Below are positions 33,113 through 51,738 of a stretch of DNA of 64,000 nucleotides, in pieces. The stretch is from the sequence record NC_025447.1; one strand, given 5' to 3'. The notes below the pieces were generated by a model. That model was not told the DNA's origin, ran no database searches, and saw only the letters and a list, made by a program, of their open reading frames with translations. The stretch's first letter is position 1, and every line of letters begins with the position of its first letter. This stretch comes from Escherichia phage 121Q. A program made the translations under genes and the position numbers.

Positions 33113-33144
33113 GAGTTCTGATAGTACTGATAGTACAAATGTTC

Positions 33145-33173: not shown

Positions 33174-33202
33174 GCACCAACGTTAATCATAGGGTACAGA
33201 TT

Positions 33203-34700: not shown

Positions 34701-34892
34701 ATGCACACCACGCACACAGAGCACAAAAATACAAAAACGATAAATGTTTTAAATGATTCTTTATTGGTGAGTATAAATTTATATTATAAAATTCATTTAA
34801 ATGGTGGTATTGAAAATTTTAGTTATTATTTGAGTACAATATCGCAAGAGCATTTAATATACCAAGATCATTTATTGCACCCGAATCCATAA
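34701..34892 (+). CDS. hypothetical protein (63 aa), uncertain
   Basis: ORF in a 350-bp gap; no clear SD. Confidence 0.3.
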   Translation: MHTTHTEHKNTKTINVLNDSLLVSINLYYKIHLNGGIENFSYYLSTISQEHLIYQDHLLHPNP

Positions 34893-34900
34893 GGCAAATT

Positions 34901-35446
34901 ATGAATGATATAGAATTATTAGCACACAAGATTAGTACAATAATGCTTATCCTCAATAACAACCATCCTATATCGAAGATAGATGGAATCCTGAGTCAGA
35001 GGACAGGTGGTAGTTTATATTTGACATTAACAGAGGTTATCGCAAGGAATTACATTGATATTGAAATCGAGAACAGTGATGCATCAGGAAAGGTTGATGT
35101 AGGTGCATTAATCAGTTCAAATCCAGTATCAGCATCCCCATTGACCAAAGGTGTTAGTACAGGATTCGAAGGGTATTTGTGGTACAATACCAATGATGAT
35201 TATTTTATATATCAGCATTCCAATACAAATTATGATGAAGACAAATTTCAGTTCATAGACCCTTATGATGAAGCTGAAGTATTTCAAAAATCATTAATCA
35301 CAAAACCGCATGAGATGATGTATCTAATGTTATTCAGTACAATGCATTTGAATCCATTAATTAAAGGTTTAAAATTTTATATTCAATTGAATTTAGTCCA
35401 TGTAGTTTATGATTTATTAATGCAAGGATATAGTTATGAAGTATAA
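34901..35446 (+). CDS. family-3 protein
   Basis: Core EAEVFQKSLI. Confidence 0.6.
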   Translation: MNDIELLAHKISTIMLILNNNHPISKIDGILSQRTGGSLYLTLTEVIARNYIDIEIENSDASGKVDVGALISSNPVSASPLTKGVSTGFEGYLWYNTNDDYFIYQHSNTNYDEDKFQFIDPYDEAEVFQKSLITKPHEMMYLMLFSTMHLNPLIKGLKFYIQLNLVHVVYDLLMQGYSYEV

Positions 35447-35753
35447 AATGCTTAATACAGTATCAGGGGTATATGTAGAATTAGAATCCGATTATTCAGA
35501 TGGATGGAATTTTATTAAACGACACGATAGAAATACATGGTACATGGCACATTTGGATAATGACGTAATAATAGATAATTTTGTCGATTTTAATACATTA
35601 TCAGAAGAAGAATTTTTCCAAATGCAATTTGTGCTTGATACAAATGGATTTGATTTGCTATTATTAAGGAATATTCAGAAAGCGGTTAATGAATTCATAA
35701 TCCAAAATAATTCAGGTAAAATGGGGATGTTCCATGATCTGGAAGTACAATGA
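35436..35753 (+). CDS. family-3 protein
   Basis: Core SEEEFFQMQFVLD. Confidence 0.6.
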   Translation: MKYKMLNTVSGVYVELESDYSDGWNFIKRHDRNTWYMAHLDNDVIIDNFVDFNTLSEEEFFQMQFVLDTNGFDLLLLRNIQKAVNEFIIQNNSGKMGMFHDLEVQ

Positions 35754-36291
35754 AATTCAGTACACCTACGCTAATGCAATCCTTATGGGACAAAAGTTAG
35801 CTTGTATTGTTGCAGCCTTATATAATGCCCAGAAATATCACAAGCGTCATTTCCACAAATGTATTGGTATTATTCCATCGAAGTACAATACATATATTGC
35901 GTGCACGAGTCATTTTGATAAACGATTCAATACACCTGATACCCCAAATGCCAGTAGTGTTATTGGTCTTTTGGATTTCGCACCTGGTGCTGTTATTGGA
36001 AAGAATGATTTAGAGTACACATGGTATAATAAAAATGCCCCGTTAGTAATGGTAAAATATGATACAGAAACGAATAAAACAATAGAGTACAATACATATA
36101 AATCAGAGGAAGAATTTTTCCAAGGTTCATTGCTTGTGCCAGTGCGTTTGTTGTTTTATAATGTCCTTATTAGTACAGTACACAATAGTCCATTACACAA
36201 GAATCACAAAATTAATTTCAATTTTTGTGCTTATGCGATTGATGGTGTGTATGAGTGTTTAATGGAGGTATTGAGTTATGAAGCTGAATAA
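35734..36291 (+). CDS. family-3 protein
   Basis: Core SEEEFFQGSLLV. Confidence 0.6.
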   Translation: MIWKYNEIQYTYANAILMGQKLACIVAALYNAQKYHKRHFHKCIGIIPSKYNTYIACTSHFDKRFNTPDTPNASSVIGLLDFAPGAVIGKNDLEYTWYNKNAPLVMVKYDTETNKTIEYNTYKSEEEFFQGSLLVPVRLLFYNVLISTVHNSPLHKNHKINFNFCAYAIDGVYECLMEVLSYEAE

Positions 36292-36619
36292 TACATTTGA
36301 TATTAATAAGTTAAGAGAATGGTTTTATAGTATTGAAATTGAAGCCATCCCGTATCATAGATATGAACAATATAATTTAACCAGTATTGATATCAGTGAG
36401 TTGTACGCGTATTATCAAAGTGCATTAGAGATGCATAAGTTATTTTTGAGTACAGATTTTGTTCTAAATTACAATTTTGAGGAATTTAATAATTATAATT
36501 TAGTACAGAAATATGTAGTAGCAAAGTATATGTACCTTCAAGGAATTACAAGTAATTTGGAATTCAATACAGTCCTTGCTTTAGTTGAGGTAATTTTATG
36601 CAGTACATGTATGATTTAG
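36278..36619 (+). CDS. family-3-like protein (degenerate core)
   Basis: ELYAYYQSALEM. Confidence 0.5.
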   Translation: MKLNNTFDINKLREWFYSIEIEAIPYHRYEQYNLTSIDISELYAYYQSALEMHKLFLSTDFVLNYNFEEFNNYNLVQKYVVAKYMYLQGITSNLEFNTVLALVEVILCSTCMI

Positions 36620-37104
36620 AGTTCAGCTTAGATGCTGCATTTAAATATGTTCACAAGATAGAAACAATATACAGTACATTATGTGCAATACAATCAGTAT
36701 CATCTGAGTTTGATGTTGGTGAAAAATATCAGGTATGGAATAATACATTTCTAAACAAAGAACGTTGCTCTACGGGGTTTAATATTTTAACATTTAATCC
36801 CAGCAATTGTTACCCAGAGAAGCATGAACGTTATCCGAATGACGACATGTGGTTTGATTACACAAAAGATGGTGATATGTCATCCCTTGTAGTTCCTGAT
36901 GATTTTAATGCCGAAGATTTAACGGAAGAGTGGTGGTTTCAACAGAATTTAGTACACGATGATATTGATTTATTTTTTTATGTAGTATTTAAAATGCTTT
37001 ACCACAACAATATATTAAAAGATAGTGTGTTTTTTTCATGTCTATATATTGATGATTTGTACAATGAAATCCAAATCAACATTCCCAGCACGCCTGTATC
37101 GTAA
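36598..37104 (+). CDS. family-3 protein
   Basis: Core TEEWWFQQNLVHDD. Confidence 0.6.
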   Translation: MQYMYDLEFSLDAAFKYVHKIETIYSTLCAIQSVSSEFDVGEKYQVWNNTFLNKERCSTGFNILTFNPSNCYPEKHERYPNDDMWFDYTKDGDMSSLVVPDDFNAEDLTEEWWFQQNLVHDDIDLFFYVVFKMLYHNNILKDSVFFSCLYIDDLYNEIQINIPSTPVS

Positions 37105-37129
37105 GATATGGGCTTTTTTCGTTTTGGTA

Positions 37130-37158
37130 TTGACAAAGAAGTGCAAAGCTGTTATCAT
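37130..37158 (+). promoter_or_regulatory. internal sigma70-like promoter in array 3
   Basis: TTGACA, 17-nt spacer, TATCAT; followed by SD AAGGAGAACAT. Confidence 0.5.
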
Positions 37159-37186
37159 GTGTAATCATTTTAAAGGAGAACATATA

Positions 37187-37687
37187 GTGAGTTTCATAAT
37201 CCCAAGTACATACGAAGATGCATCAAGTGCAGTTCATAAGATTCATTATATTTTTAATTTAATTATTAGATCTGCAAAAATTAAAATGTATGCACCTCTT
37301 GTGACAAATAATCGAAATGAAGAAATTTTTATTAGCACAGACAAAATTATTTTTCCATATTTCAATGAAGATAGATTGTGGTTCATACATTTAGCTGCAT
37401 TACAAAAATATAAGATGTCAATTCGTAATAATTTGGTTATACCGTTATATCATCCCGATATTGGAGAGGATGAGTATTTTCAGTACAGCACAGTACACCA
37501 CCATGAAGATATCTTTGCTGCTATGCTTATTGCTAAATTGAACACCGTTGATTTGGAGCAGTACAAATACAATAATAAATCATGTAAGATCATAATCCCT
37601 GCATTCATAGCTCTTTATGATTATGTGGTGCATAACAAAAAAGATGATACATATGCTTTCAATGAAGAGTATTTGAATTTTTTTTAA
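37187..37687 (+). CDS. family-3 protein (probable GTG start)
   Basis: ORF track gives 37025; start moved to GTG 37187 after SD AAGGAG (the next gene uses the same SD with ATG); core GEDEYFQYSTVHH. Confidence 0.5.
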   Translation: MSFIIPSTYEDASSAVHKIHYIFNLIIRSAKIKMYAPLVTNNRNEEIFISTDKIIFPYFNEDRLWFIHLAALQKYKMSIRNNLVIPLYHPDIGEDEYFQYSTVHHHEDIFAAMLIAKLNTVDLEQYKYNNKSCKIIIPAFIALYDYVVHNKKDDTYAFNEEYLNFF

Positions 37688-37696
37688 GGAGAACAT

Positions 37697-38224
37697 ATGA
37701 GCAGTGACGTGCAGAAATCAATGACATTCAATGAAATTGGTGCATTTAAAGATAAGATCATTGATTGTCTTGAATACATGATTTGTAGTAATATCGAAAG
37801 TATCGAGATATTTAACAAGACAAATCGCTCTTACCATATGATGTACATTGCAAACAATAATGGTATCATTCCATTTATTTCGGATAGTACAATATGGTAC
37901 GCATGTGATACGAAAAAAACCACAATAGGTTTACATTTATTTGAGACACATTATGATCTAATTATTCCTGAACATTGTATGCAAGAAGAAGAATATTTTC
38001 AAATGCAATGTATACATTCACCATTAGTGTTGTTTAGTTTATATATTATACCTTATATCACCAAATGTGTTCATGAGAATAAAGCTCCGTGGAATCATGA
38101 ATTTGTATCGTTGAAGTTATTGTATAATGTATTAGTAGAATATTATGATTACAGGCACAATGGTACAATCAGTGATGTATGGGATTTTGAATCGCTAAGG
38201 GTGAAAACATACACAGGTGAATGA
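37697..38224 (+). CDS. family-3 protein
   Basis: SD AAGGAGAACAT; core QEEEYFQMQCIH. Confidence 0.65.
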   Translation: MSSDVQKSMTFNEIGAFKDKIIDCLEYMICSNIESIEIFNKTNRSYHMMYIANNNGIIPFISDSTIWYACDTKKTTIGLHLFETHYDLIIPEHCMQEEEYFQMQCIHSPLVLFSLYIIPYITKCVHENKAPWNHEFVSLKLLYNVLVEYYDYRHNGTISDVWDFESLRVKTYTGE

Positions 38225-38840
38225 TATGACCAGAATTAAAATGTATGATTTGATGCAGTACAGTAAAATTGCCATTCCAGTGCTTAATAAAGTGCTGGAT
38301 GCATTCATTGCCAAATACCCTGAGAATTCAGTGTTATGTATTCCATTTAGTGTTCCAGATAAAGATGATATATTCCAAGTGAATGTCAGTACACGTGGTA
38401 TTACATTGCAGCAGAAATACATGGATACGGAATATTATGGAATAAAGTTGGATTCAGTACAGGGTTCAAAATCAGCCTATGATTTTTTTGTTCCTAATAA
38501 TATAGAGTCATGGGAAACAAACATTTCAAAGAAAGATGAAAATGATGTTCCTATTAGTGGTGTGTTCAACAATAAAGTTTTTTATTATTACGAAACCGAC
38601 AAATTCCCTGAAGAGTTATATTACAATTCAGAAATGAGTGAGGATATAGATGCATTCATGTTTCAATTATCTTTAGTACATGATATCATTGATGTTCAAG
38701 AGTTAAGAGCAGAAATCAATTTAGCTAAAGAGTTATCGGACATGCTGCCACCGTTTAGTATGCTTTTTTGTGAAGGAGGTTATTTTTCAAAAGAAGTGTT
38801 TGAACATTTCGTAGATGTTGTAAAAGGGTTGGATATATAG
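38217..38840 (+). CDS. family-3 protein
   Basis: Core DIDAFMFQLSLVHD. Confidence 0.6.
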   Translation: MNDMTRIKMYDLMQYSKIAIPVLNKVLDAFIAKYPENSVLCIPFSVPDKDDIFQVNVSTRGITLQQKYMDTEYYGIKLDSVQGSKSAYDFFVPNNIESWETNISKKDENDVPISGVFNNKVFYYYETDKFPEELYYNSEMSEDIDAFMFQLSLVHDIIDVQELRAEINLAKELSDMLPPFSMLFCEGGYFSKEVFEHFVDVVKGLDI

Positions 38841-38841
38841 T

Positions 38842-39036
38842 ATGCTTATAATTGATATTAAACAAAAATACCGTAAGTTTGATTGGTTCACCGATAGTTT
38901 CCAGCTTGAATTATTACATATGAATATCAGTGAAACATTATGTGCAGAAACACAAGATGAATTTGATGATAGAGTGATGAACATAGTAATGCTTTCTTGC
39001 TTTAAACATTTTGGTTATTTTTTCGGACAGAATTGA
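38842..39036 (+). CDS. hypothetical small protein (64 aa)
   Basis: Array position; weak core. Confidence 0.45.
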   Translation: MLIIDIKQKYRKFDWFTDSFQLELLHMNISETLCAETQDEFDDRVMNIVMLSCFKHFGYFFGQN

Positions 39037-39045
39037 GGTAAAAAA

Positions 39046-39561
39046 ATGCATCAACACAAGCATCATTCATATGATTTTGCAATTAACATTATGAAGTTCA
39101 TTCGAGCGTTGGAGGATGGGAAGCTTAGTCATAAGTACAGGAAAGAGGGTAACAATTGGTTCAGAAATGATTCCGAGTTCAGTTGTCATAAAATCGTGTA
39201 TAGTAATCAGTACAGTGCCAATTACCTACAAGATGTAGTGATGTGTTTTGAATACGTGTTGCAGTTCAGGGGTTCAATCCAAGATGAGTTGATGGAGAAC
39301 ATGTACATCCGATACCTTCCAATGCTCAAAGATGAAAATGTATTATTAAATTCAATATACCAACGAGTTCGTGAAATTGAGTGCAGGGATATATTAGATA
39401 CAGAAGAATCGTATTTCCAGCATTCCCTGATTTATTCACCTGATTTATTACAGGTACATAATTTGTTTAATACATTACGTCAGAACATCAGTACAGACAT
39501 ATTTTTGTCATTATCGGATTATGATACATTTGTCAAAGATTTAGAGGAAATAGGTTTATGA
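39046..39561 (+). CDS. family-3 protein
   Basis: Core TEESYFQHSLIY. Confidence 0.6.
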   Translation: MHQHKHHSYDFAINIMKFIRALEDGKLSHKYRKEGNNWFRNDSEFSCHKIVYSNQYSANYLQDVVMCFEYVLQFRGSIQDELMENMYIRYLPMLKDENVLLNSIYQRVREIECRDILDTEESYFQHSLIYSPDLLQVHNLFNTLRQNISTDIFLSLSDYDTFVKDLEEIGL

Positions 39562-39899
39562 GTCGATTTTCGGTTTGTGTGGTAAACATAAAAAGTGATG
39601 GTAGTTTAATTGAATTAGATGTATATGATGATGATAATGCATATGGTATTAAAGTACAGGACAATGATGTGCAGTTCAGTTCAAGAACAAATTTTGAAAA
39701 TCCAGTCCAAGTTCCTAATTTCATAGAAGATGAAGCAGCACGTTTCCAATACGAAACGGCATATGACAATGTACATATGCATATTATTATGCAACAAAGT
39801 TTAGTTCAATTAGTTCCTTTGTTCAGACAAAATATATATGTACATGAATTGTCGATCAATGACGTTCGCAGTTCCGTATTGTTCGATACAAATATGTAA
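39558..39899 (+). CDS. family-3 protein
   Basis: Core DEAARFQYETAYD. Confidence 0.55.
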   Translation: MSRFSVCVVNIKSDGSLIELDVYDDDNAYGIKVQDNDVQFSSRTNFENPVQVPNFIEDEAARFQYETAYDNVHMHIIMQQSLVQLVPLFRQNIYVHELSINDVRSSVLFDTNM

Positions 39900-39909
39900 G
39901 GAAAGTACA

Positions 39910-40461
39910 ATGAGTTCAATGAGTTTATTAGATACATTAGAAAAAGACAGAAGTGCAATTAAGCGTTTAAAAGAGCAAGTACAAAAGATTGTATACAACG
40001 TTGATAAGTTTGAAGTCCCAGGAAGATTTGGTGATATTTCCCATACGGAGATCAAATCCCTTAAGTCAGATTTGTTGATTAAAAATAAAAATGGGTTGAT
40101 TTTAGTTTTGAGTTCAGATATGATGGGGGCAACACATAGTTATAATGCAGTATCGGTGCGTTCCGAGTGTGAAGGTATATATCTATCACAGGGTTTCAAT
40201 AGCGAGACACAGGTTTGTTTTTGTGATGCAGTACATGATCCTATGAAGTTCACGAGAAGTGAAGCCCAAGCGTTATTAGAGCTATCAGACGAGAGTTTGT
40301 TTCAGTACAGTACAATGTATGACAATGATAAGCTTCGTTGTATGTACGCTGTAAAGCATTATACACAGGAGTTTTCTGGATTTGCATACCTTTTAGTTAG
40401 AACCAATACCAGATATATTGATATGTTAGAAGATTACATCGATAAAGTTGTTAATGTATGA
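39910..40461 (+). CDS. family-3 protein
   Basis: Start trimmed to ATG 39910 after SD AAGGAAAG; core DESLFQYSTMYD. Confidence 0.6.
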   Translation: MSSMSLLDTLEKDRSAIKRLKEQVQKIVYNVDKFEVPGRFGDISHTEIKSLKSDLLIKNKNGLILVLSSDMMGATHSYNAVSVRSECEGIYLSQGFNSETQVCFCDAVHDPMKFTRSEAQALLELSDESLFQYSTMYDNDKLRCMYAVKHYTQEFSGFAYLLVRTNTRYIDMLEDYIDKVVNV

Positions 40462-40482
40462 TTTTGTGATGGGATGATGCTA

Positions 40483-40653
40483 ATGAAAGAGTTATTTGAA
40501 GATCAGTTCAATACATATGTGGATAATATTCTTTATTCCAGTCGTGCCAGTCAACGAGGAAATCGTGCTTACAATATTGATTACCTATTGGTGGTGCTGA
40601 GTTCACAGTACACCAATGCGGTACAAAGGGTTTATTATGAAAAGTGCAAGTAA
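40483..40653 (+). CDS. hypothetical small protein (56 aa; below ORF-track cutoff)
   Basis: Hand-translated MKELFEDQFNTYVDNILYSS...; fills gap. Confidence 0.4.
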   Translation: MKELFEDQFNTYVDNILYSSRASQRGNRAYNIDYLLVVLSSQYTNAVQRVYYEKCK

Positions 40654-40846
40654 TAGTGATATTGCAAAGGAGAAGTTTAAGTGCAGTTTAGATTACGGTT
40701 TAAATGATTTTCTTACATGCACAATGTACAGGAATGATGATTATGAGCAATCCGTAATTTCGTTGCACAGATATTTCGAAATAATTTACGCAAGATATCT
40801 TAGAAGGTTAGAGGGAATAGGGGATTGGAATTATGATTACGTTTGA
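40637..40846 (+). CDS. hypothetical protein (69 aa)
   Basis: Start trimmed to ATG 40637. Confidence 0.45.
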   Translation: MKSASNSDIAKEKFKCSLDYGLNDFLTCTMYRNDDYEQSVISLHRYFEIIYARYLRRLEGIGDWNYDYV

Positions 40847-41069
40847 AGAACCAGAAACAATGAGTCCATATACGATGAAAGGTTTTGAATTCATGATGGA
40901 TTCGATTTTGAAGAATTCGTGTTTAGTACACAATCCTGAGCGTGCAACAGTGAGGGAATATCAGGACAATGCATTACAGCGTGTAATGAATATGTACAGG
41001 AATACGAGTCGCAAGCTTTGTGCGTTGAAAAGGATTGAAGAAATCAAGGTTTCTAGGCTGAATAAATAG
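40833..41069 (+). CDS. hypothetical protein (78 aa)
   Basis: Coupled ORF. Confidence 0.5.
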   Translation: MITFEEPETMSPYTMKGFEFMMDSILKNSCLVHNPERATVREYQDNALQRVMNMYRNTSRKLCALKRIEEIKVSRLNK

Positions 41070-41268
41070 AGACGTTTCATTTTGACAGGCCGCAGGGGGG
41101 GTCAAAAAAATTTCCGCTGAAAAACATGCTAAGGTATATGTTTAATATAAAGTTTTATATTGTGTTTTTCAGAGTACAGTTCATGTTTCCTGAAACAAAA
41201 AAAATACCCCGCCACCGAACGTGCTCTTTATATTGGAGTTTACCTTATTAATTATAGTAGAGATTAAG

Positions 41269-41646
41269 ATGGAAATAAAATATAATGAATTTTGTGCAAG
41301 GACATGGATGTACACTGGTGAGTTAGTTACGCACTCTAACTTATACAAGGGTGATTTAAACTACGCCAGGGACAAGATTTTAAAGTACTGGAATGCTGAC
41401 TTTTATTTGATGGATTTTAGTACTGGGTTTAGGGGTAAAGCAACCGAGATGTTGGACTATACAGTACTTGATGATGCTGCACTGTTTCAGGAGGCATTAG
41501 TATTTGATAAGAAGTACATCTGTACATTAGAAGAGATGATTGAATTACAGCGTAGAATTAAATGTATTCACAGGGAATGTATAGATATCTGGTGCAGTAC
41601 TGGTGAAGATAATTTTTGTAATCATTTCAATCTAGGGGAAGTGTGA
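41269..41646 (+). CDS. family-3 protein
   Basis: Start trimmed to ATG 41269; core DDAALFQEALVFDKKYICT. Confidence 0.6.
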   Translation: MEIKYNEFCARTWMYTGELVTHSNLYKGDLNYARDKILKYWNADFYLMDFSTGFRGKATEMLDYTVLDDAALFQEALVFDKKYICTLEEMIELQRRIKCIHRECIDIWCSTGEDNFCNHFNLGEV

Positions 41647-41870
41647 TGGAATTTGATTTTTTAATATCAGTACATACGGTCAAGGGTGCACCTCAGTACC
41701 TTTGTAATTTAAACAAAGGTGATTTGATTATGGATACAGATACAGAGGTTGTATACAGTTCTAATGTTCTGTGCAAGGAATTTCAGAATTCGAAAATGCT
41801 TGAGTTATTGTGCATTGCTGATTGTAATATTCTGTACAAATTCAGTACTAATCTGAAGGAGATTTTATGA
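41643..41870 (+). CDS. hypothetical protein (75 aa); N-terminus paralogous to 42235
   Basis: MEFDFLISVHTVKG...CNLNKGDL as in the 42235 protein. Confidence 0.55.
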   Translation: MMEFDFLISVHTVKGAPQYLCNLNKGDLIMDTDTEVVYSSNVLCKEFQNSKMLELLCIADCNILYKFSTNLKEIL

Positions 41871-42235
41871 AAAAAGAAATTAGAATCCAATTCGGTATGA
41901 GGAAAAAAGAGGTCATCTGTACACTGAATCATGCGGACGTGGAAATGGGTGGTGCATTACAAAAATTCTCACATTTTGTTCTTGTACTATATGAAAATGG
42001 GTCTTTTAAAATCTTCACATATGATGATTCAAAAAATTACCGTAATGATTTTGTAAATCTTACAGTACTGTCAGAAGAGGAATTCTTTCAGGAAAGTACT
42101 GTCTGGAATTTACAAGGAGCACCAATTGAATACGTCCGTGCTACACAGGTAGAGATGATCAAAACAATGCAGAACTATCCAGAAGATTATATGACTAAGT
42201 TTCATGAATCTTTTAATGTAGAGGTTGAGTACTGA
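41867..42235 (+). CDS. family-3 protein
   Basis: Core SEEEFFQESTVWN. Confidence 0.6.
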   Translation: MKKEIRIQFGMRKKEVICTLNHADVEMGGALQKFSHFVLVLYENGSFKIFTYDDSKNYRNDFVNLTVLSEEEFFQESTVWNLQGAPIEYVRATQVEMIKTMQNYPEDYMTKFHESFNVEVEY

Positions 42236-42591
42236 TGGAATTTGATTTTTTAATATCAGTACATTCTTTTAAGCACAGTTTTCAGTACTTTTGTAATTTA
42301 AACAAAGGTGATTTAATGCACAGTGCGAATGAGTATATTCATTTTACTGATGGTAAATTCTCATTTATTGATTACAGTTCATTAGATTTTCCATACACTG
42401 ATATGCCGGACTATACATTGATGGATGCTGGTGAACTATTTCAAGCTGCATTAGTATTTGACAAGAAGTACATCTGTACATTTGAAGAAGTAATTACTAT
42501 ACAAAATGAAATGAAGGTGTATGCATCGTTGAATAAACCTAATGAATGTATTAATCAAGAATACAAATTCAATATAGGAATTCCAAAATGA
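42235..42591 (+). CDS. family-3 protein
   Basis: Core DAGELFQAALVFDKKYICTFEE. Confidence 0.6.
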   Translation: MEFDFLISVHSFKHSFQYFCNLNKGDLMHSANEYIHFTDGKFSFIDYSSLDFPYTDMPDYTLMDAGELFQAALVFDKKYICTFEEVITIQNEMKVYASLNKPNECINQEYKFNIGIPK

Positions 42592-42947
42592 CATATGATT
42601 ATTCTATGTACTATTATAAGTTACCTAAAGGATGGGACTTGTGCTGTAATCTTATTAAGGGAGACTCGGAACATGAGTTGAGTTTATATATGCACTACAA
42701 AGATTCTTGTTTTAAATTTATTCATGTATTACATGATGGCTATGACTATGAATCTGAGAGTCTTATAGATTATACAGTACTGGACGATGGTGAACTATTT
42801 CAGGAAGCATTAGTGTTTGATAAGAATAAGTACTCCTGTACATTTGAAGAAATGGTTTCTTTGCAAAATGAAATGAAGAGATTTGAAAAAGAAAACGTAT
42901 TTAATCCATCCCCATCAAGAACGAATAATTATTATTTCAATATATGA
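42588..42947 (+). CDS. family-3 protein
   Basis: Core DDGELFQEALVFDKNKYSCTFEE. Confidence 0.6.
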   Translation: MTYDYSMYYYKLPKGWDLCCNLIKGDSEHELSLYMHYKDSCFKFIHVLHDGYDYESESLIDYTVLDDGELFQEALVFDKNKYSCTFEEMVSLQNEMKRFEKENVFNPSPSRTNNYYFNI

Positions 42948-42956
42948 GATTATAAA

Positions 42957-43451
42957 ATGACATTACAGAGTTCATTGGAAAAAGCAAAGAAGATTCATGA
43001 GTACATGAATATGGTAAAAGAAGGTTCAGTTTACGGTGTTTTCAAAGACACAAGTACTCAATATTATGTGCCAGATAACCTCCTTTATAATGACTGCTCA
43101 GATACAGAAACGTGCGTACTGGATACAGAAACGTGTGTACTGGATACCGACCCTAATGATTATGAATGTTTCATTGATATGCATAATGAGTACATGGTCT
43201 ATATTAATGATGCAGATATTACCATATACAGTACTGACTGCGATTCCGATGACATTATAATTCCGAGTGAAGTACTAGAAGGTCAGTGGGATAGTGAAGA
43301 GTATTACTTCCAACAAAGTACTGTTTACGATGATGAAGTACTTGATGTTATTATAATTATGTGGTACTTTAAAAGTATTGGTTCTGGGAACTTCTATTTC
43401 GATTACAAATACGTAAAGAAAACTGTAGATAACGGTATTAACAGGTGTTGA
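42957..43451 (+). CDS. family-3 protein (subfamily SEEYYFQQSTVYDDEVLD)
   Basis: Core plus internal 21-bp tandem duplication (DTETCVL x2). Confidence 0.65.
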   Translation: MTLQSSLEKAKKIHEYMNMVKEGSVYGVFKDTSTQYYVPDNLLYNDCSDTETCVLDTETCVLDTDPNDYECFIDMHNEYMVYINDADITIYSTDCDSDDIIIPSEVLEGQWDSEEYYFQQSTVYDDEVLDVIIIMWYFKSIGSGNFYFDYKYVKKTVDNGINRC

Positions 43452-43452
43452 A

Positions 43453-43923
43453 ATGAGTTTAGAAAGAGCATTAGAGATTGCGAAGTTAATTGATTTATGC
43501 AGCAAAGAAATTGTATCAAATTGTCTCAATGGATATCTATTCAAGGAAGGTAAATCATATTGTCGAATGATATACGATGACAGTAGTGAATATATCCATA
43601 TGTATGAAGAAAACTTAGATTCTTCTGAAACAACACTCAATGGGTGTGATGTTAATTTGGAAGATAATTACATGTACTTCTGTCGTGATGCTGATATTTT
43701 AATACAAGATTCTGACATTCTAACTGGTGGTGAAGAGAAACATCTTCCGTATTCAGTACTGGATAATAACTGGGGTAGTGAAGATTACTATTTCCAGCAG
43801 AGTACTATATATAATGAAGATATACTTGACAAACTTGTTATTTCTTGGTACTTTCATAACACGGATTATAGTAGCTTCTACATAGACTTGGATCTACTAA
43901 GAGTACTTAAAGAGGATATATGA
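43453..43923 (+). CDS. family-3 protein (same subfamily)
   Basis: Core SEDYYFQQSTIYNEDILD. Confidence 0.65.
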   Translation: MSLERALEIAKLIDLCSKEIVSNCLNGYLFKEGKSYCRMIYDDSSEYIHMYEENLDSSETTLNGCDVNLEDNYMYFCRDADILIQDSDILTGGEEKHLPYSVLDNNWGSEDYYFQQSTIYNEDILDKLVISWYFHNTDYSSFYIDLDLLRVLKEDI

Positions 43924-44360
43924 GTTTAGAAAAAGCACTAGAACTAGCCAACAAAATACATCAGTACCATGATAAAATAAAAAGTGGGTTCTATGCTGAT
44001 AAAGTACATGCATATGGGAATGAATATTACCTCACTGGAGTAAAGAGATACTCTAATGATATTTTACTTATGGGTCATGATAAAGACAATAATATACAGT
44101 ACTCTTCATGTAGTCAATATACTAGTTTTATGGTATATATTCCTGGTACTAAGATTACTTTTGACACATCAAATACACCTGTTGACTTCGAGGTACTTGA
44201 TGGCCCGTGGGGTACTGAAGAGTATTACTTCCAACAGAGTCTCATTTTTAACCAAGAAATGCTTGATTCCTTGGTTGTGTTGTGGTACTTTAAGGAATTG
44301 AATTTTGAACCATTCTTTCTTGACTGGGGATCATGTGAGTATTTAATTTCAGGGGAATAA
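43920..44360 (+). CDS. family-3 protein (same subfamily)
   Basis: Core TEEYYFQQSLIFNQEMLD. Confidence 0.65.
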   Translation: MSLEKALELANKIHQYHDKIKSGFYADKVHAYGNEYYLTGVKRYSNDILLMGHDKDNNIQYSSCSQYTSFMVYIPGTKITFDTSNTPVDFEVLDGPWGTEEYYFQQSLIFNQEMLDSLVVLWYFKELNFEPFFLDWGSCEYLISGE

Positions 44361-44362
44361 TA

Positions 44363-44851
44363 ATGTCATTACAAAGTGCGTTGAAAGAAGCAAAGAAGAT
44401 TCATGAGTACATGATTATGGTACAGGAAGGTTCAGTACCAGGTGTATACAAAACATCAGATACGGAATTCTTCGTTAAGGATAGAGATGATTATGACGAT
44501 TCAGAGGTATGTGCAGAAACATTAGTACTGCACACTGATACTGGTGACAGTGATAACTGTGAATATCATATGTACAATCAGTACATTAGTTATTGCCGTA
44601 ATGAAGATATTACCATCTACAACACAGATAGTGATGCTGATGACACTATCATTCCTTATTCAGTTCTGGAAGGTCAGTGGGATAGTGAAGAATATTACTT
44701 CCAGAATAGTACTATCTACAATGAAGAAGAACTGGATGTTATTGTGATTATGTGGTATTTCAAAAGTATTGACTCCAGTAGTTTCTATTTTGATTATGAA
44801 TATGTAGAGAATACAGTAGGAGAAGGTAATGTCATTACAAAGTGCTCTTGA
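44363..44851 (+). CDS. family-3 protein (same subfamily)
   Basis: Core SEEYYFQNSTIYNEEELD. Confidence 0.65.
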   Translation: MSLQSALKEAKKIHEYMIMVQEGSVPGVYKTSDTEFFVKDRDDYDDSEVCAETLVLHTDTGDSDNCEYHMYNQYISYCRNEDITIYNTDSDADDTIIPYSVLEGQWDSEEYYFQNSTIYNEEELDVIVIMWYFKSIDSSSFYFDYEYVENTVGEGNVITKCS

Positions 44852-45281
44852 AAAAGCAAAAGAACTACATGGATACTTTGAAGATATAAAGGCCGGAAAG
44901 TTCAAAGAAGTGTACAAAGCCGAGAACGGTAACTACTACAAAGATGAAATGTATAATAACTCCGTTGGTGTAAGGGTTATTCTTGGGTTGAATTCCAATA
45001 GCCCAGTGTCGTATTCGGAATACAATAGAGATGCAGAATTCATTAGTTATGTTGAAAATGGTAGCATTCGTTTTATTAATAGACAAAAACCATTAACATT
45101 GAATTGTGAAGTACTGAATGGTCCGTGGAATAGTGAAGAGTATTACTTCCAAAACAGTACTGTATATGATGATGAAGTACTTGAAGCATTAGTTATTATG
45201 TGGTACTTCAAGAGTGTTAGCTGTCCTCGATTTTATTTGGATTTCGAAGATCTTCGTAAAGTACCAGAAGGTATAGAATGA
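44829..45281 (+). CDS. family-3 protein (same subfamily)
   Basis: Core SEEYYFQNSTVYDDEVLE. Confidence 0.65.
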   Translation: MSLQSALEKAKELHGYFEDIKAGKFKEVYKAENGNYYKDEMYNNSVGVRVILGLNSNSPVSYSEYNRDAEFISYVENGSIRFINRQKPLTLNCEVLNGPWNSEEYYFQNSTVYDDEVLEALVIMWYFKSVSCPRFYLDFEDLRKVPEGIE

Positions 45282-45592
45282 AAAACTTATTCAGTGTTCA
45301 GTACGTTCCTGGTGAAATTGGTTTATTGTATCTATTTGACCATGATAATTCATTATTACTAGTAGTGAAGAAATGCCAAGCTAGTTCGTTTGTTGAATAC
45401 ATTCACGATAGTGAATACATTCCTGATTTCCTAGAGTGTGATTATCACGATGAACATGAATCATTTATTTTTCAGGAATCACTCGTATGGGATAAATCGA
45501 TCAACTTCTTTACGTTAATTGAATTACAAAAGCAGGTGAAGTATTATTGGGATTACTTAATTACACAGGATTACATTGAGATTGAAACATAA
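45278..45592 (+). CDS. family-3 protein
   Basis: Core HESFIFQESLVWD. Confidence 0.6.
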   Translation: MKNLFSVQYVPGEIGLLYLFDHDNSLLLVVKKCQASSFVEYIHDSEYIPDFLECDYHDEHESFIFQESLVWDKSINFFTLIELQKQVKYYWDYLITQDYIEIET

Positions 45593-45900
45593 TGACAAAA
45601 AATGAATTTGATTCACTTTGTACGGTTTATAATTCATTGACAGAAATACCTGACTTTATTAATTACATTTCAGCTTTAAATCAAATTATGAATAGTTTTG
45701 AACAATCGTTTGAAGAGAAATATGCAGGTAGAAAAGTTCTATGTCATATGTCAATGTACTTGGGAGATGGTGAGCCTTACACTACCAGTACTACATGTGA
45801 AATAAAAAAATATAATATATTATTGGGCACAATAGAATTCACAGTATCCAATGGTGGTAGTTATATGTACTTTAGAGATGGAGTGGTTGAATTATTATGA
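45592..45900 (+). CDS. hypothetical protein (102 aa)
   Basis: Coupled ORF; no family core. Confidence 0.5.
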   Translation: MTKNEFDSLCTVYNSLTEIPDFINYISALNQIMNSFEQSFEEKYAGRKVLCHMSMYLGDGEPYTTSTTCEIKKYNILLGTIEFTVSNGGSYMYFRDGVVELL

Positions 45901-46346
45901 GTTACGAAAGTGCAATCAAGAAAGCAAATGATATTCTAAAAGTTGTTCAGTTCTTCAAAGAAAATCCTGAATACTTAGCTGATGAAAACCATGATCACGA
46001 TGAGAGATTGAGACGAAAAATTGTCGCTTTATTTGACACTAATGCGGATAATTATAGTCTAATTGAGTTAGCATACGATTATATTTCATTGAACCGAAAC
46101 GGACATTTAGTTAATATAGAAAGACATGCGAGTGAAGAATCTTTTAAAATTTCAGACATTTTATCCCTGAGTACTGAAGAAGGGTACTTCCAGGGTAGTA
46201 CTGTTTATGAACAAGGAACACTTGACAATCTATGCACATTCAGTGTAATATATCAGAAATCAGTACTGGATGTATTTTATCTTGACACTGCTGAACTGGA
46301 TACACTAATCAATTTTGTTACTACTGAAGAGGCCACATTTGAGTGA
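45897..46346 (+). CDS. family-3 protein
   Basis: Core TEEGYFQGSTVYE. Confidence 0.6.
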   Translation: MSYESAIKKANDILKVVQFFKENPEYLADENHDHDERLRRKIVALFDTNADNYSLIELAYDYISLNRNGHLVNIERHASEESFKISDILSLSTEEGYFQGSTVYEQGTLDNLCTFSVIYQKSVLDVFYLDTAELDTLINFVTTEEATFE

Positions 46347-46879
46347 TGAAAGTTAACATCAATGACTTTGATGCATTACAAGATTTATCAAAAAAGATTC
46401 GCATAATCGTACCAGTACTCAAAAAATGCAGTACTGGTTTAATTGATCCTAGTACTGTTGTTAATGAGAAGTACAATTTTCATCGTGTATTACAGGGTAC
46501 AGGTGCATTTCAGAAGTGTGATGTACGTGAGAAACACGTAATTGATACATCATTGTTTTCTATTGGTGCACCTGTGTCGAATAATTCTATTTTCCTGGAT
46601 AACGCAGGAAATATTCAACAATTAACATTTAAGAAAAGGAAAAAGAACAATAACATTGGTGTGTACGCGATGAAGTGGGGTCAACCTGATTTGAAGCGTG
46701 AAATTCACATCCCTAAGTACAATTACAATGCATTTGACGAACAGTGTTTTCAACTATCGTGTACTGACCCTGACTATGCAATCATTCAGTTCTATATGGA
46801 ATTGCAGATAGCATTTAACAGTAATTTATATATTAACTTGTTGGCAATGAACATCGATGAAGTATTCAAAAACATTTAA
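46343..46879 (+). CDS. family-3 protein
   Basis: Core DEQCFQLSCTD. Confidence 0.55.
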   Translation: MMKVNINDFDALQDLSKKIRIIVPVLKKCSTGLIDPSTVVNEKYNFHRVLQGTGAFQKCDVREKHVIDTSLFSIGAPVSNNSIFLDNAGNIQQLTFKKRKKNNNIGVYAMKWGQPDLKREIHIPKYNYNAFDEQCFQLSCTDPDYAIIQFYMELQIAFNSNLYINLLAMNIDEVFKNI

Positions 46880-47075
46880 TCGAATTGAATACATGAGAAC
46901 TGTGAGTGCAGTGTGGGACATATGGTTCACTACTAAACCAAAAATGGATTACCATGACTTTAAGCTCTTGTTCTTCGTTGGCTCTAACAAACAGGATGTT
47001 GCAATGAAGGGTTATATTCAGCACTTACAGGAACTAATACAGAAGAGGGTTAATGAAAATAATAGACCAAGATGA
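46857..47075 (+). CDS. family-2-like small protein (outlier copy)
   Basis: Core FVGSNKQDVAMKGYIQHLQ. Confidence 0.55.
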   Translation: MKYSKTFNRIEYMRTVSAVWDIWFTTKPKMDYHDFKLLFFVGSNKQDVAMKGYIQHLQELIQKRVNENNRPR

Positions 47076-47244
47076 TATTGCTAAACTATTCAATATATAT
47101 TCTACTAGAATGATGCAAACAGACTCATATAGTACTGAATTCAAAGAGTTGAAAGTACTGATGTACTTGGGAACCCAATATCAGGAACAAGTTATTTTGG
47201 AATATATTAATTCGTTGAAGAAGGATATCCGTTATGTACGATGA
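47053..47244 (+). CDS. family-2-like small protein
   Basis: Core YLGTQYQEQVI. Confidence 0.55.
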   Translation: MKIIDQDDIAKLFNIYSTRMMQTDSYSTEFKELKVLMYLGTQYQEQVILEYINSLKKDIRYVR

Positions 47245-47794
47245 TTTAGATCTTGCGTTTGAACGTATGGTAATTTTAATGCAATGTGCAGAAATGCATG
47301 AAACAATCCGTCGCACCAAAGGGATTGAATATACAAGTAAACTATTCTCATACGAAAGTCGTCGAGGGATGGATCATTTTTACTGCACTGATTGTTCAAA
47401 GTTTTCAGTACTGAAATATTATCATCCTACTGTTTCCAATAATAGTTTAATATCCACATATGACGGTGATCTGTTTAGTGTAATGTATGACACATTACAT
47501 CCATCAATTTCAATCTATAAAGATTGCGATAGTAGTTTATCGTATATAATTGAAGATTACTTATCTCCTAATACTGAAGAGAATATTTTTCAGAACAGTG
47601 TGTTGCATGATGAATTAAGTATAAAATGCATCTATATGTTCAATAAGTTAAAAGAGTACGCCGATAATAATTACTTCATTGATGATTTAGCGGTATTGTC
47701 TGTTTCCGTTTTTAATACAAATGATATTGATATGAAATACTATAATGAGATTTGTAAAGTACATCATATGTATAAGGAACTATTATGTCAATAA
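47234..47794 (+). CDS. family-3 protein
   Basis: Core TEENIFQNSVLHD. Confidence 0.6.
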   Translation: MYDDLDLAFERMVILMQCAEMHETIRRTKGIEYTSKLFSYESRRGMDHFYCTDCSKFSVLKYYHPTVSNNSLISTYDGDLFSVMYDTLHPSISIYKDCDSSLSYIIEDYLSPNTEENIFQNSVLHDELSIKCIYMFNKLKEYADNNYFIDDLAVLSVSVFNTNDIDMKYYNEICKVHHMYKELLCQ

Positions 47795-48387
47795 ATGCAA
47801 ATAAATGTTGTAGTGCAGATGTGCATTTGTTTTTTAAGAAATTAGCAAATGATATTATATATATGCAGGAAATGATTTATCACAAACGAGCGGATTTAGA
47901 AAAAGCATTAGTACAGTTCTCATTTATGCTTGATGGTGATATATTTCTAGAGAGTGATGCATTGCAAATAGTATTAGACAAAAATGCTAAAAGATTTTTA
48001 TTTCATATAGATAATAAATTATGTTCCTCCGTATGTCGTACTTTTTATAATCGTGATTCGGACTTATATCAATTCCTTTATTCTAAAGGTGCAGTAGAAG
48101 CATCATATGGTGATGGTTATGCCCTAGGAAAGAGTATTCCATTTATGAAATCATTTAAAATAGAACACATCAGTACTGATGAAGATGCAATGTTCACAAA
48201 TGATATAACTATGGGACGTGAAGATGCAATGCGATATATTACAAATTCTATGCATACATTCTTTCAACGAACAGAATTTGATAATGTATATATATCAAAT
48301 GTAAATATTTTCAATGACCTGTGTCAGTACTTGAGAAGTGTTTGTAATTTCGATGAAAGCTATTGTAAGCTATATACTGAGGTATAA
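47785..48387 (+). CDS. hypothetical protein (200 aa)
   Basis: Coupled ORF; core degenerate. Confidence 0.5.
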   Translation: MSINANKCCSADVHLFFKKLANDIIYMQEMIYHKRADLEKALVQFSFMLDGDIFLESDALQIVLDKNAKRFLFHIDNKLCSSVCRTFYNRDSDLYQFLYSKGAVEASYGDGYALGKSIPFMKSFKIEHISTDEDAMFTNDITMGREDAMRYITNSMHTFFQRTEFDNVYISNVNIFNDLCQYLRSVCNFDESYCKLYTEV

Positions 48388-48392
48388 AACAA

Positions 48393-48755
48393 ATGAACAC
48401 ATTAAGTATTACATACTATACAACTAAAAAATTAGTTACTTGTTTAATATCTTTGAAGACAAACCATGATGATATGTTTGATATGGCTGCATATGAATTA
48501 GAATTATCAGAAGATGGCTTCAAGAGCTATGAAGTATATAGCTATGTCCGTGAAGATGTAATTGACACTACACTAATGCAAGAGGATGAGTTATTCCAAG
48601 AAAGTTTAGTATGGGATAATAAGTACGATTGTAACTTTGATTTCTTATGTTTAATCCAGAAAGAAATGAAAAGAATCTTTGATAATTATCCAATCAAACG
48701 TTTCAGTACTGCACCTGAGCAATATAAAAGGATTATATTCACCTATGAAGATTGA
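48393..48755 (+). CDS. family-3 protein
   Basis: Core QEDELFQESLVWDNKYDC. Confidence 0.6.
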   Translation: MNTLSITYYTTKKLVTCLISLKTNHDDMFDMAAYELELSEDGFKSYEVYSYVREDVIDTTLMQEDELFQESLVWDNKYDCNFDFLCLIQKEMKRIFDNYPIKRFSTAPEQYKRIIFTYED

Positions 48756-49122
48756 ATTTGAAGTTATTACATATAGTATAGGTGATGGTATCCGTTGCTA
48801 TGTACAAGCAAGGCATATGGTTCCTGATGATAAACTGTCACCCAAAAGCTTCTGTATCACACAAGATCTCTTAGATATCAACGGAGAGTACAAGTACATA
48901 TATTATCTTACTAAGGGTTATTGTAGTACACGTGGTTTTAATATTGTAGCTGTTTCTAGAGATGAAATTGATGATTTAACTGAGTACGGGGAAGAAGAGA
49001 TGTTCCAGTACAGTACTGTTTTTAATGAACTGGATGTGTTTCTGTTACGAAAAATACAACACATTATGCAAGAATGTTTGCATCATAAGAGAGGTATGGT
49101 ATGCGACGTGAATCTGAATTAG
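48745..49122 (+). CDS. family-3 protein
   Basis: Start trimmed to ATG 48745; core GEEEMFQYSTVFN. Confidence 0.6.
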   Translation: MKIEFEVITYSIGDGIRCYVQARHMVPDDKLSPKSFCITQDLLDINGEYKYIYYLTKGYCSTRGFNIVAVSRDEIDDLTEYGEEEMFQYSTVFNELDVFLLRKIQHIMQECLHHKRGMVCDVNLN

Positions 49123-49442
49123 TTAAAGTAATGTACGCTACTCATATTAAACTACTACTTGTTAAATTTGATTATAATAAAAAACATAATGATTTCTATA
49201 CTTTAATTCGTGATGAAAATACATTCTCCTTGCGATGCAACAATATACCCTTGAAGATAAATGATTTTACTTCACTTGACGAGGGGGAATTATTTCAAGA
49301 ATCATTAGTTTTTAATAGTAATATAAAAATTGATATAGAAGTTATTAAAAAATACCAGATTCTATTGAACAAAATTATGAATTGTTATCCATGTGAAATA
49401 GGTGGTCATATGCAGTTCAAATCAAAAATGTATGAATTATGA
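49101..49442 (+). CDS. family-3 protein
   Basis: Core DEGELFQESLVFN. Confidence 0.6.
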   Translation: MRRESELVKVMYATHIKLLLVKFDYNKKHNDFYTLIRDENTFSLRCNNIPLKINDFTSLDEGELFQESLVFNSNIKIDIEVIKKYQILLNKIMNCYPCEIGGHMQFKSKMYEL

Positions 49443-49449
49443 GGTTTAT

Positions 49450-49986
49450 ATGTTAGATAAAAAAATGAACTCTGGAACCCAATATAATCATCTTAAGTTG
49501 GATACATTCGAATCAGCTATCAGTACAGCACAAGATATAATTGATATTATCAAGTTCATTAAAGAAGATAAGTTCAAATGTTTGAAAATACTAAATCGTT
49601 CAATGTACCGTGATAAAAATATTCATGTATCAGTACGTAGACCGAAAGATCAAGAAAGTGGGAGAGATTTCTATAACAACAGTGAGCAGTTCGAATGTGA
49701 ATATGATCCAGAATTTAGAGGTGGTTTCATGTGTTACTGTATGAAGGATACCTCACACATTGAGATACGTTCATCGAAAGGTGGCATACGTACATTAGAG
49801 TTTATTGATATAGTTTTAAATCAGGAATACTACTTTCAACTATCATTATTGTTTCCTGCATACGATTTAGGAGTTCTATTCATGTATAAGTACTTTCATG
49901 AGCACTGGAATGAAGACTTCTATCTGGACTTAGAAGATTACCAATTAGTTTGGAAAGAAATGGTAGAACTTCGCAACCCATCTTGA
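49450..49986 (+). CDS. family-3 protein
   Basis: Start trimmed to ATG 49450; core NQEYYFQLSLLF. Confidence 0.6.
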   Translation: MLDKKMNSGTQYNHLKLDTFESAISTAQDIIDIIKFIKEDKFKCLKILNRSMYRDKNIHVSVRRPKDQESGRDFYNNSEQFECEYDPEFRGGFMCYCMKDTSHIEIRSSKGGIRTLEFIDIVLNQEYYFQLSLLFPAYDLGVLFMYKYFHEHWNEDFYLDLEDYQLVWKEMVELRNPS

Positions 49987-50012
49987 CACCCTCCGATTCT
50001 TTGTGATATAAT
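49983..50012 (+). promoter_or_regulatory. internal promoter with extended -10
   Basis: TTGACA, 18-nt spacer, TGaTATAAT. Confidence 0.5.
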
Positions 50013-50045
50013 CTCTTTATATTAATTGTAAAGGGTTATATCACA

Positions 50046-50522
50046 ATGTCCAAAGACCTATCATTTAGCAATGCACAAAAAATAGCAAAAGACATTATCA
50101 GGGTTTATAAATTCCTTACAAATGTTACTGAAGATTTTTCCGTGGGCAAACATACAGTCAAAAAACGAAATGGATACCTTTCCTTTATGGATGGGTTACT
50201 CTATAGTTCAGATGAATCAACTTGTAGTATTAGAGTGCTTGATGAAGTACCAAGTGGTGATTTTATTTCATACCATTTCCCAAGTTCAGATAATTTCAAA
50301 TACTACAATCATCATCTTATAAATGAAGGATTTGATACGGCTGAAATTAACACTGAAGAAGAGTTCTTCCAGTACAGTACTGTGTATCCAGAGAGGATTG
50401 TTTTCAGTTCAGTGATTTACACTGCCCTTAAAAATGAACTAAATTCAGATAGTGATCATTTCTACTTGGACCTGAACAATCTCGATTGTATTATTGAGTA
50501 CCTGGAGAAAAATGGTTTATGA
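50046..50522 (+). CDS. family-3 protein
   Basis: Core TEEEFFQYSTVYP. Confidence 0.65.
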   Translation: MSKDLSFSNAQKIAKDIIRVYKFLTNVTEDFSVGKHTVKKRNGYLSFMDGLLYSSDESTCSIRVLDEVPSGDFISYHFPSSDNFKYYNHHLINEGFDTAEINTEEEFFQYSTVYPERIVFSSVIYTALKNELNSDSDHFYLDLNNLDCIIEYLEKNGL

Positions 50523-51013
50523 TTACTACAGAATATGATTACGATGGTGTTTTAGAATTTGCAGACAATATCTATCGCATTGCAAAGGAGTTCAGAAGTC
50601 CTGACCCATTTGGTGGTATGTTCGAATACGATGAGTTTAGTTCATCCAAAGGAAGACTTGCGTTTACTAATGAAAGAGGTAATCAAATCTATGCCGAGTA
50701 CTTTGATGACAATGACTTTCATTACAAAGCCGGATACATTTCATATTGCCCTGGGTCTGATTTGAAGATTAATATTGACAATTATAGAGAAGCAGTATTT
50801 GTTAAGTATGATGATTTAGTGTTCATGTCAGAGGAAATGTACTTTCAGGGTTCTTGTATTCATGATGTAAAAGTACTTAATGCTATGTTATTTTATGGTG
50901 CACTACTTCATCATTACAAATACAAACAACGATTCTTTTTAGATTTAGTAGTATACTATAAATGCGTGGATTATTTGAATGCAAAATACGACAACAATTC
51001 AGTACATGACTGA
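50519..51013 (+). CDS. family-3 protein
   Basis: Core SEEMYFQGSCIHD. Confidence 0.6.
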   Translation: MITTEYDYDGVLEFADNIYRIAKEFRSPDPFGGMFEYDEFSSSKGRLAFTNERGNQIYAEYFDDNDFHYKAGYISYCPGSDLKINIDNYREAVFVKYDDLVFMSEEMYFQGSCIHDVKVLNAMLFYGALLHHYKYKQRFFLDLVVYYKCVDYLNAKYDNNSVHD

Positions 51014-51341
51014 TGGTACTGAATACTTTGTTTCAAGATATGTAATCAGACACAATCATTATGTAACCTATATTCCAGAATACAATCAATTTTATATCCA
51101 GATTTATCAAGACAATGGAAAGATAAATGATATATATTCAGAAATAAAAATCCCTGATTATAGTACTTTATCAGAAGAGGAATTGTTTCAGCAGAGCACT
51201 ATCAGTACTGAAGATGTGTACAAAATAATGGAATACCAGAAGGTACTTAAATATTTTCATGAAGTACAGGATATACAAATAGATATTCTTACTGCGTGGA
51301 GTTATATCACACACGAGGTAAATTATGTTCGAAATGATTAA
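51006..51341 (+). CDS. family-3 protein
   Basis: Start trimmed from 50979; core SEEELFQQSTIS. Confidence 0.55.
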   Translation: MTDGTEYFVSRYVIRHNHYVTYIPEYNQFYIQIYQDNGKINDIYSEIKIPDYSTLSEEELFQQSTISTEDVYKIMEYQKVLKYFHEVQDIQIDILTAWSYITHEVNYVRND

Positions 51342-51738
51342 AATTATGCAACGATGTGTTGTTGACCAACACGGGATATATGGATATCGTTTAAGTGCTC
51401 CTATTGACAAAAATAAAACAACCTATGTAAGCTATAATGCTGTACAAGGATTTGATATATTCATTAGTACTAATTATCAAATCAATCAAGCTAAAGATGT
51501 GTCTATAATGACCCCTGATGAGTTATTTCAGTACAGCTTAGTCTTTCCTTCATGTATCGATTTACAACGTCTAGGAGCGATACAGAAGGTTTTACGCGAA
51601 CATAAAGTACAACCCAATAAAGTCACACACATTCCAGAAACAATCTTCAAAACCATAGAAGTAGAAACTCCTGATTATATGTTAAGTGATGATGAGTACT
51701 ACGAGAAACACTTCCCTGGTAAAGTTTGGAGAGATTGA
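51325..51738 (+). CDS. family-3 protein
   Basis: Core TPDELFQYSLVF. Confidence 0.6.
   Translation: MFEMIKIMQRCVVDQHGIYGYRLSAPIDKNKTTYVSYNAVQGFDIFISTNYQINQAKDVSIMTPDELFQYSLVFPSCIDLQRLGAIQKVLREHKVQPNKVTHIPETIFKTIEVETPDYMLSDDEYYEKHFPGKVWRD

Follow-up and report, generated by a model that had tools for sequence, protein, structure and literature searches.

What does a short tandem repeat inside one gene of a phage gene array record: an error of assembly, a piece imported from a neighbouring gene, a motif favoured in the DNA itself, a protein element whose length is under selection, or a duplication that arose in place and was tolerated there? The question is raised by a 21-bp repeat in a 64,000-nucleotide stretch of phage DNA (hereafter the window), which by its sequence similarity is that of an Asteriusvirus jumbo coliphage of the PBECO4/121Q/slurp01 kind. 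The 4.5 kb around the repeat (42000-46500) are 97.9% identical to vB_Eco_slurp01 and ~94% identical to PBECO4, phAPEC6 and others. Coordinates of the features are collected in Table 1.

The initial annotation had described 43101-43147 as an in-frame tandem duplication encoding DTETCVL-DTETCVL-DTD, and direct reading, TRF and translation of the ORF all bear this out. The two copies stand head to tail and agree at 20 of 21 positions (one mismatch, 95%), and are followed at 43143-43147 by GATAC and then by CGAC. TRF gives the segment a period of 21, 2.2 copies, 96% matches and a score of 87, the highest among the short-period repeats of the 64-kb window. The unit starts at codon 49 (43101-42957 = 144) of the 164-aa ORF at 42957-43451, where the protein reads ...NDCS DTETCVL DTETCVL DTD PNDYE..., and its length of 21 nt, a multiple of three, keeps the frame and leaves the ORF intact at 164 aa. 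The longest tandem run with at most one mismatch measures 26 nt, whereas the longest in 100 second-order Markov randomisations was 16 nt, and a search for the 21-mer with up to three mismatches returns only the two repeat positions across the 64-kb window, where none would be expected. Comparison of DNA secondary structure with that of shuffled sequence gave no hairpin at the site beyond the shuffles (z -1.24). In the literature, no paper was found on this repeat or on intragenic unit-length polymorphism in these phages.

Table 1. Features of the repeat, its gene and the surrounding array (window coordinates)
Feature	Coordinates	Strand	Basis
Repeat-bearing gene, 164-aa acidic protein	42957..43451	+	ORF, phrog_9317 match
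Repeat copy 1 (GATACAGAAACGTGCGTACTG; DTETCVL, residues 49-55)	43101..43121	+	direct reading, TRF
Repeat copy 2 (GATACAGAAACGTGTGTACTG; DTETCVL, residues 56-62; one synonymous C>T)	43122..43142	+	
GATACCGA, the "partial third copy", microhomology to unit start GATACAGA	43143..43150	+	alignment, one-copy alleles
Single homologous unit (TGTGCAGAAACATTAGTACTG, 71% identical; CAETLVL) in nearest paralog 44363-44851	44510..44530	+	repeat search, protein alignment
Five adjoining phrog_9317 paralogs ('family-3' block), overlapping or tightly packed	42957..45281	+	
Array of ~38 distantly related tandem paralogs	32771..61186	+	iterative HMM search, window's predicted proteins

The gene that carries the repeat had been assigned to an array and to its family 3, and it does lie there, as one of ~38 tandem paralogs recovered by iterative HMM search. 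It matches phrog_9317 with an E-value of 1.1e-67, residues 1-163 aligning to positions 1-159 of a 160-position profile, and this full-length, significant match makes it a member of PHROG 9317, a family of the Asteriusvirus group. Four more phrog_9317 ORFs adjoin it (43453-45281), and the gene at 45897-46346 belongs to the related phrog_12674. The ~38 paralogs are acidic and lie on the same strand, and many share the motif (Y/F/L)FQxS(T/L)(V/I)(Y/F/W). An array of more than 30 similar genes has already been reported for 121Q (Hua et al. 2017, PMC5646251) and the same array is also mentioned for phAPEC6 (Wagemans et al. 2020, PMC7247149); with its more than 30 related genes on one strand of an Asteriusvirus genome, the array in the window is of the 121Q type. 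The published observation concerns duplication of whole genes, whereas the 21-bp event is a tandem duplication on a smaller scale within the same genomic feature.

Tandem duplication at the scale of whole genes, as in the 121Q array, can also be seen elsewhere in the window. A 226-bp x 2.0 tandem repeat at 30804-31254 (82% identical, TRF score 622) consists of two adjoining paralogous mini-genes, at 30808-31044 (78 aa) and 31034-31279 (81 aa), and is a recent whole-gene tandem duplication; the pair sits in a separate array of ~20 genes of 66-97 aa (27.9-32.8 kb). Furthermore, slurp01, EC22.5-2, BF17 and CRJP21 match 42000-46500 in two to three pieces that span ~290-490 bp beyond the query, and the gene content of these relatives therefore differs within the array.

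The composition of the repeat-bearing protein is strongly acidic (D+E 20%, K+R 6%), and its orthologs, PSLUR01_00272 of slurp01, gp442c of phAPEC6 and 121Q_370, are each annotated as 'hypothetical protein'. Searches of Pfam, NCBIfam, PADLOC and PDB sequences returned no match, and neither sequence nor structure linked it significantly to a characterised fold or to a defence or anti-defence family. Its structural neighbours in BFVD are only uncharacterised proteins from 121Q, SP27, RaK2 and GAP32, and a profile search of 1.84 billion representative proteins found just 39. The phAPEC6 ortholog is absent from the text of the published virion proteome, and in the relative CBB the early host-takeover region is suspected to lie in a block of short hypothetical genes (PMC5259590). 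We would guess, with low confidence, that the protein is a non-structural one acting in host interaction or early takeover, which would suit a small, acidic protein that is not part of the virion and whose gene lies in a large array of short genes on one strand. The ortholog in the Salmonella phage SD-1_S14 (OR699183.1, 98205-99253) has lost 46 bp (alignment columns 266-311) with a shift of frame, and its annotation consists of two short CDSs, a hint that this phage may be able to do without the gene. Promoter-like and terminator-like sites around the gene occur at the shuffle expectation, and the 64-kb window contains no Rfam families and no tRNAs.

If the repeat changes in length in nature, related isolates should differ at this site, as the initial annotation proposed to check. 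They do, and by exactly one 21-bp unit. A 107-nt query across the repeat resolved all 24 GenBank records with an ortholog: two units are present, matched collinearly, in 21 of them (20 distinct genomes, PBECO4 having been deposited twice), and one unit in A4, UE-S1 and JP4, whose match is shorter by exactly 21 nt. A three-copy allele was not found among the 24 records, no match being longer than two units. An alignment of 12 orthologs places a 21-column gap at the repeat in UE-S1, JP4 and A4, with no such gap nearby, and two units in the other nine, the window included. Two units are also present in three contigs from a metagenome scan, and a large protein collection adds at least five one-copy protein clusters (P0004, P0006, P0007, P0009 and P0010), among which P0009 equals the two-copy P0003 from Met19 onward minus seven residues. 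Scans of IMG/VR by protein pattern and by DNA pattern, of GTDB genome contigs and of complete E. coli genomes yielded no further alleles. The possible orthologs in vB_Ec-M-J, TH47 and fEgEco12 were left out of the count; those of vB_Ec-M-J and fEgEco12 were rejected as orthologs of the repeat-bearing gene, both being orthologous to the neighbouring paralog 44363-44851. The duplication is real, heritable, widespread and polymorphic. The two-unit form is the commoner one among related phages, and the polymorphism is very probably of the ordinary replication-slippage kind. The earlier suggestion that slippage or recombination operates locally within an array gene gains support from this unit-sized polymorphism and from the fact that its states are not partitioned by sequence relatedness.

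The one-copy alleles also reveal what the site would have looked like before the duplication. UE-S1, JP4 and A4 read GATACAGAAACGTGCGTACT, then G or A, then GATACCGAC (one-copy allele sequence CAGATACAGAAACGTGCGTACTGGATACCGAC), and their single unit is bracketed by GATACAGA and GATACCGA, 21 nt apart. The partial third copy noted in the initial annotation is present as five nucleotides, but it does not stand for a separate duplication event, since one-copy alleles already carry GATACCGA; it is pre-existing microhomology, because these alleles already have GATAC, 21 nt and GATAC again. Short direct repeats that bracket a unit are the classical substrate of slipped-strand mispairing in the Streisinger model, and judging from these alleles the duplication most likely started from the GATACAGA/GATACCGA direct repeat. 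A single unit was probably ancestral, because both A4, the most divergent ortholog and the one outgroup on which this reading is based, and the segment at 44510-44530 of the one nearest paralog are single-copy.

The subsequent history of the repeat appears to be more complicated. Copy 2 exists in three variants (...ACGTGTGTACTG, ...ACATGCATACTA and ...ACGTGCATACTA), each 1-3 nt away from copy 1 and altering its peptide by no more than one conservative Val>Ile change. Such divergence marks the duplication as old and both copies as still under coding constraint. Outside the repeat, JP4, which has one copy, is 3 nt from the two-copy SP27 and phAPEC6, whereas UE-S1 and A4, both one-copy, are 23 and 45 nt away. 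The nearness of JP4 to two-copy alleles requires at least two events, a gain and a later loss, or recombination across backgrounds, which could have taken place between co-infecting phages. In addition, the window gene itself is a mosaic: outside the repeat it is nearest to slurp01 (5 differences in ~450 nt), while its copy 2 is exactly that of the PBECO4 type, with 4 of the 21 positions unlike slurp01. This pattern indicates either a short recombination or conversion patch in the window allele, or a loss followed by re-duplication, and recombination probably does occur at this gene.

These comparisons lead us to propose the following sequence of events. In an ancestor of the PBECO4/slurp01 group of Asteriusvirus, 21 bp (seven codons) would have been duplicated in frame, by slipped-strand mispairing at replication or by a formally equivalent unequal exchange of sister genomes. 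Mispairing would have taken place between two GATAC(A/C)GA direct repeats spaced 21 nt apart in the one-copy ancestor. Once formed, the duplication would offer 26 nt of tandem homology that permits more slippage, and at least one lineage (JP4-like) would have lost a unit again. The insertion was presumably tolerated because indels are most frequent in the acidic loop where the repeat sits, the downstream unit keeping the beta-strand ETCVLD and the upstream unit adding seven residues to the preceding loop. The direction of change (gain, then loss), the slippage mechanism and near-neutrality are what we infer, and the sequence comparison fits unequal recombination, homologous or illegitimate, equally.

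Protein models agree with the structural part of this proposal. In the alignment of paralogs, the repeat position falls in the most gap-rich acidic stretch, between an N-terminal helix and a conserved C-terminal domain. The AlphaFold2 model of the two-copy window protein (pLDDT 83.2, pTM 0.79) falls below pLDDT 50 in one segment only, residues 46-56, where copy 1 lies, and forms a beta-strand at residues 58-63 (ETCVLD of copy 2). The model of the natural one-copy allele P0004 (pLDDT 90.5, pTM 0.85) has no low-confidence segment, and its ETCVLD strand lies at 51-56. Copy 1 is thus modelled as part of a disordered loop, to the extent that low model confidence stands for disorder; the models suggest that the downstream unit holds the structural role, with the upstream unit as a predicted loop extension of seven residues.

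Tandem repeats in general are open to mis-assembly, and the initial annotation had itself raised the possibility of an assembly artefact. That the duplication, or its collapse in the one-copy genomes, was produced by assembly or sequencing has a negligible probability. The entire repeat measures 47 nt, below any normal read length; the two-copy form recurs in the three metagenome contigs and in the 21 GenBank records, which come from many laboratories, and its copy 2 shows lineage-specific substitutions; the one-copy form recurs in three phages and several more protein clusters. The independent two-copy deposits effectively rule an artefact out. The array also offers many partly homologous partners from which an extra unit might have been imported by gene conversion or unequal crossing-over, and mosaic alleles do exist (P0004, and the PBECO4-type copy 2 of the window on slurp01-like flanks). 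However, the unit, even with three mismatches allowed, occurs nowhere else in the 64-kb window, and the best paralogous segment is single-copy and 71% identical, against 95% between the two copies. Because this nearest paralog has one homologous unit at such a low identity, it did not donate the duplication, and import from a neighbouring paralog is very improbable as an explanation. As for the GTACTG motif that had been remarked upon in the unit, it is there, but it has no special meaning. A duplication favoured at the DNA level for adding GTACTG, half of the palindrome CAGTACTG, would fit with the selection that AGTACT/GTACTG experiences at that level (164 genic sites against 50.5 +/- 6.2 under synonymous shuffling) and with the number of TRF units that contain GTAC (9 against 5.0 expected). 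The excess among TRF units is small, however, the unit holds GTACTG and not the full AGTACT core, and GTACTG or its complement CAGTAC occurs in ~8.5% of random 21-nt units window-wide and ~12% of those in the gene subfamily. GTACTG (Val-Leu codons) is already present at the homologous codons of the single-copy paralog, and three allele types are without it in copy 2, which is mutated to ATACTA in slurp01, CRJP21, ECO103 4-12-1 and metagenome alleles. We regard the motif as incidental because its chance of occurrence is ~12%, because the single-copy paralog has it and because copy 2 has lost it in several alleles; that it drove the duplication is highly unlikely.

An adaptive reading is likewise unlikely: the loop would serve as a functional spacer or interaction surface, and its changes in length as a slow contingency locus, for instance in matching or evading a variable host target or defence. 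In its favour, natural phages of several backgrounds retain either one or two units, most differences between the copies are synonymous, so that each preserves the peptide, and the linker is the most indel-rich part of a protein encoded in a rapidly diversifying multigene array. Against this, just one- and two-unit states were seen, with no allele of three or more, the models leave the extra unit as an unstructured loop, the frameshifting deletion in SD-1_S14 suggests a dispensable gene, and copy number does not follow the recorded host, two copies being found in phages isolated on K-12, O157, APEC and Salmonella. A phase-variable contingency locus in the usual sense was rejected, since the unit is an in-frame 21 nt in at most two copies and the protein is full length either way. 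The narrower claim, that DTETCVL is a length-tunable functional element in which host variation selects recurrent switching between one and two units, is distinctly improbable; if it were true, Asteriusvirus arrays would evolve by intragenic repeat toggling besides gene duplication. An in-place 21-bp duplication by slippage, or by equivalent unequal exchange, tolerated within a loop, is very probably the explanation.

Such an in-place duplication has close counterparts in known systems. Slipped-strand mispairing between short direct repeats is described by the Streisinger model, first worked out on phage T4. The present case resembles it in the head-to-tail duplication of the interval between short direct repeats (here GATAC, 21 nt apart) and in the unit-sized gain and loss among close relatives, in frame and hence viable; nothing essential differs, except that here the event is inferred from natural alleles. 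With coding VNTRs or minisatellites the locus shares a unit that is a multiple of three, a copy number that is polymorphic among isolates and a location in a poorly structured segment. Unlike VNTRs such as those of bacterial surface proteins, it has one or two units and is a nascent repeat at most, and it encodes a small phage protein that is probably cytoplasmic. Engineered tandem-repeat insertions in T4 lysozyme, from the Matthews laboratory, reportedly leave one copy in the native role while the other becomes an extension or loop, and the AlphaFold models predict the same split between copy 2 (native) and copy 1 (loop). However, the lysozyme cases are crystal structures of a duplicated helix segment, whereas ours are predictions and concern a beta-strand and a loop.

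Two features of nucleotide composition extend well beyond the repeat. AGTACT occurs at 265 sites in the 64 kb, ~12x the mononucleotide expectation, and the 8-bp palindrome CAGTACTG at 61 sites where less than one is expected (~94x); the hexamer is 5- to 12-fold and the palindrome 46- to 94-fold over expectation. Distant segments of PBECO4 (1-50000 and 200001-250000) show a 5.5- to 6.5-fold enrichment of AGTACT. Genic sites are divided 60/40/64 among the three reading frames and total ~3x the synonymous-shuffle expectation, and density is 8.8 per kb in intergenic against 3.1 per kb in genic sequence. A role as promoter element was rejected for most sites, the distribution of distances to gene starts being flat. 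The over-representation of (C)AGTACT(G) acts at the DNA level. The nearest analogy may be the highly iterated palindrome HIP1 of cyanobacteria, and no paper on AGTACT or CAGTACTG in these phages was found in the literature searched.

The distribution of AGTACT along the window is far from even. The 5 kb at 35001-40000 contain none, with GTAC still frequent and variants such as CAGTACA dominant; TRF units in this AGTACT-free zone are TAGTACAGTACACAA at 36171 and CAGTACACCA at 37481. The zone at 28-32 kb is likewise poor in AGTACT. The richest stretch is a 1.2-kb non-coding gap at 7195-8435 with 11 sites. This gap also holds short tandem repeats (GTAATCAT-type at 7309-7379, and GTAGTGATCA x2.7 at 7370-7396), a consensus sigma-70 promoter at 7822-7849 (TTGACA-N16-TATAAT) with CAGTACTG at the end of its spacer, and an iteron-like series of six GA(T/C)GGCT motifs at 8234-8360; from these elements it could be a candidate regulatory or origin region. 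The second feature is an absence. GCGC has no site in the window or in either PBECO4 segment, where 56, 43 and 38, respectively, would be expected from composition, and ~37 would be expected in the window genes under synonymous shuffling. It is the only missing 4-mer, GATC, CCGG, GGCC and CTAG being just moderately depleted, which suggests very strong selection in the face of a GCGC-specific nuclease, of host or phage origin. No description of this absence in these phages was found in the literature searched.

These genome-wide AGTACT and GCGC signals, both at the DNA level, are more valuable than the 21-bp repeat, which alone matters little. In practice the repeat can serve as a 21-bp length marker that sets A4, UE-S1 and JP4 apart from the other Asteriusvirus isolates. 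For the biology of these phages, it provides a natural case of a microhomology-seeded duplication, and of its probable re-loss, in a jumbo-phage multigene array, and it indicates that in the PHROG 9317 family seven residues can be inserted into the loop that joins the N-terminal helix to the conserved C-terminal domain.
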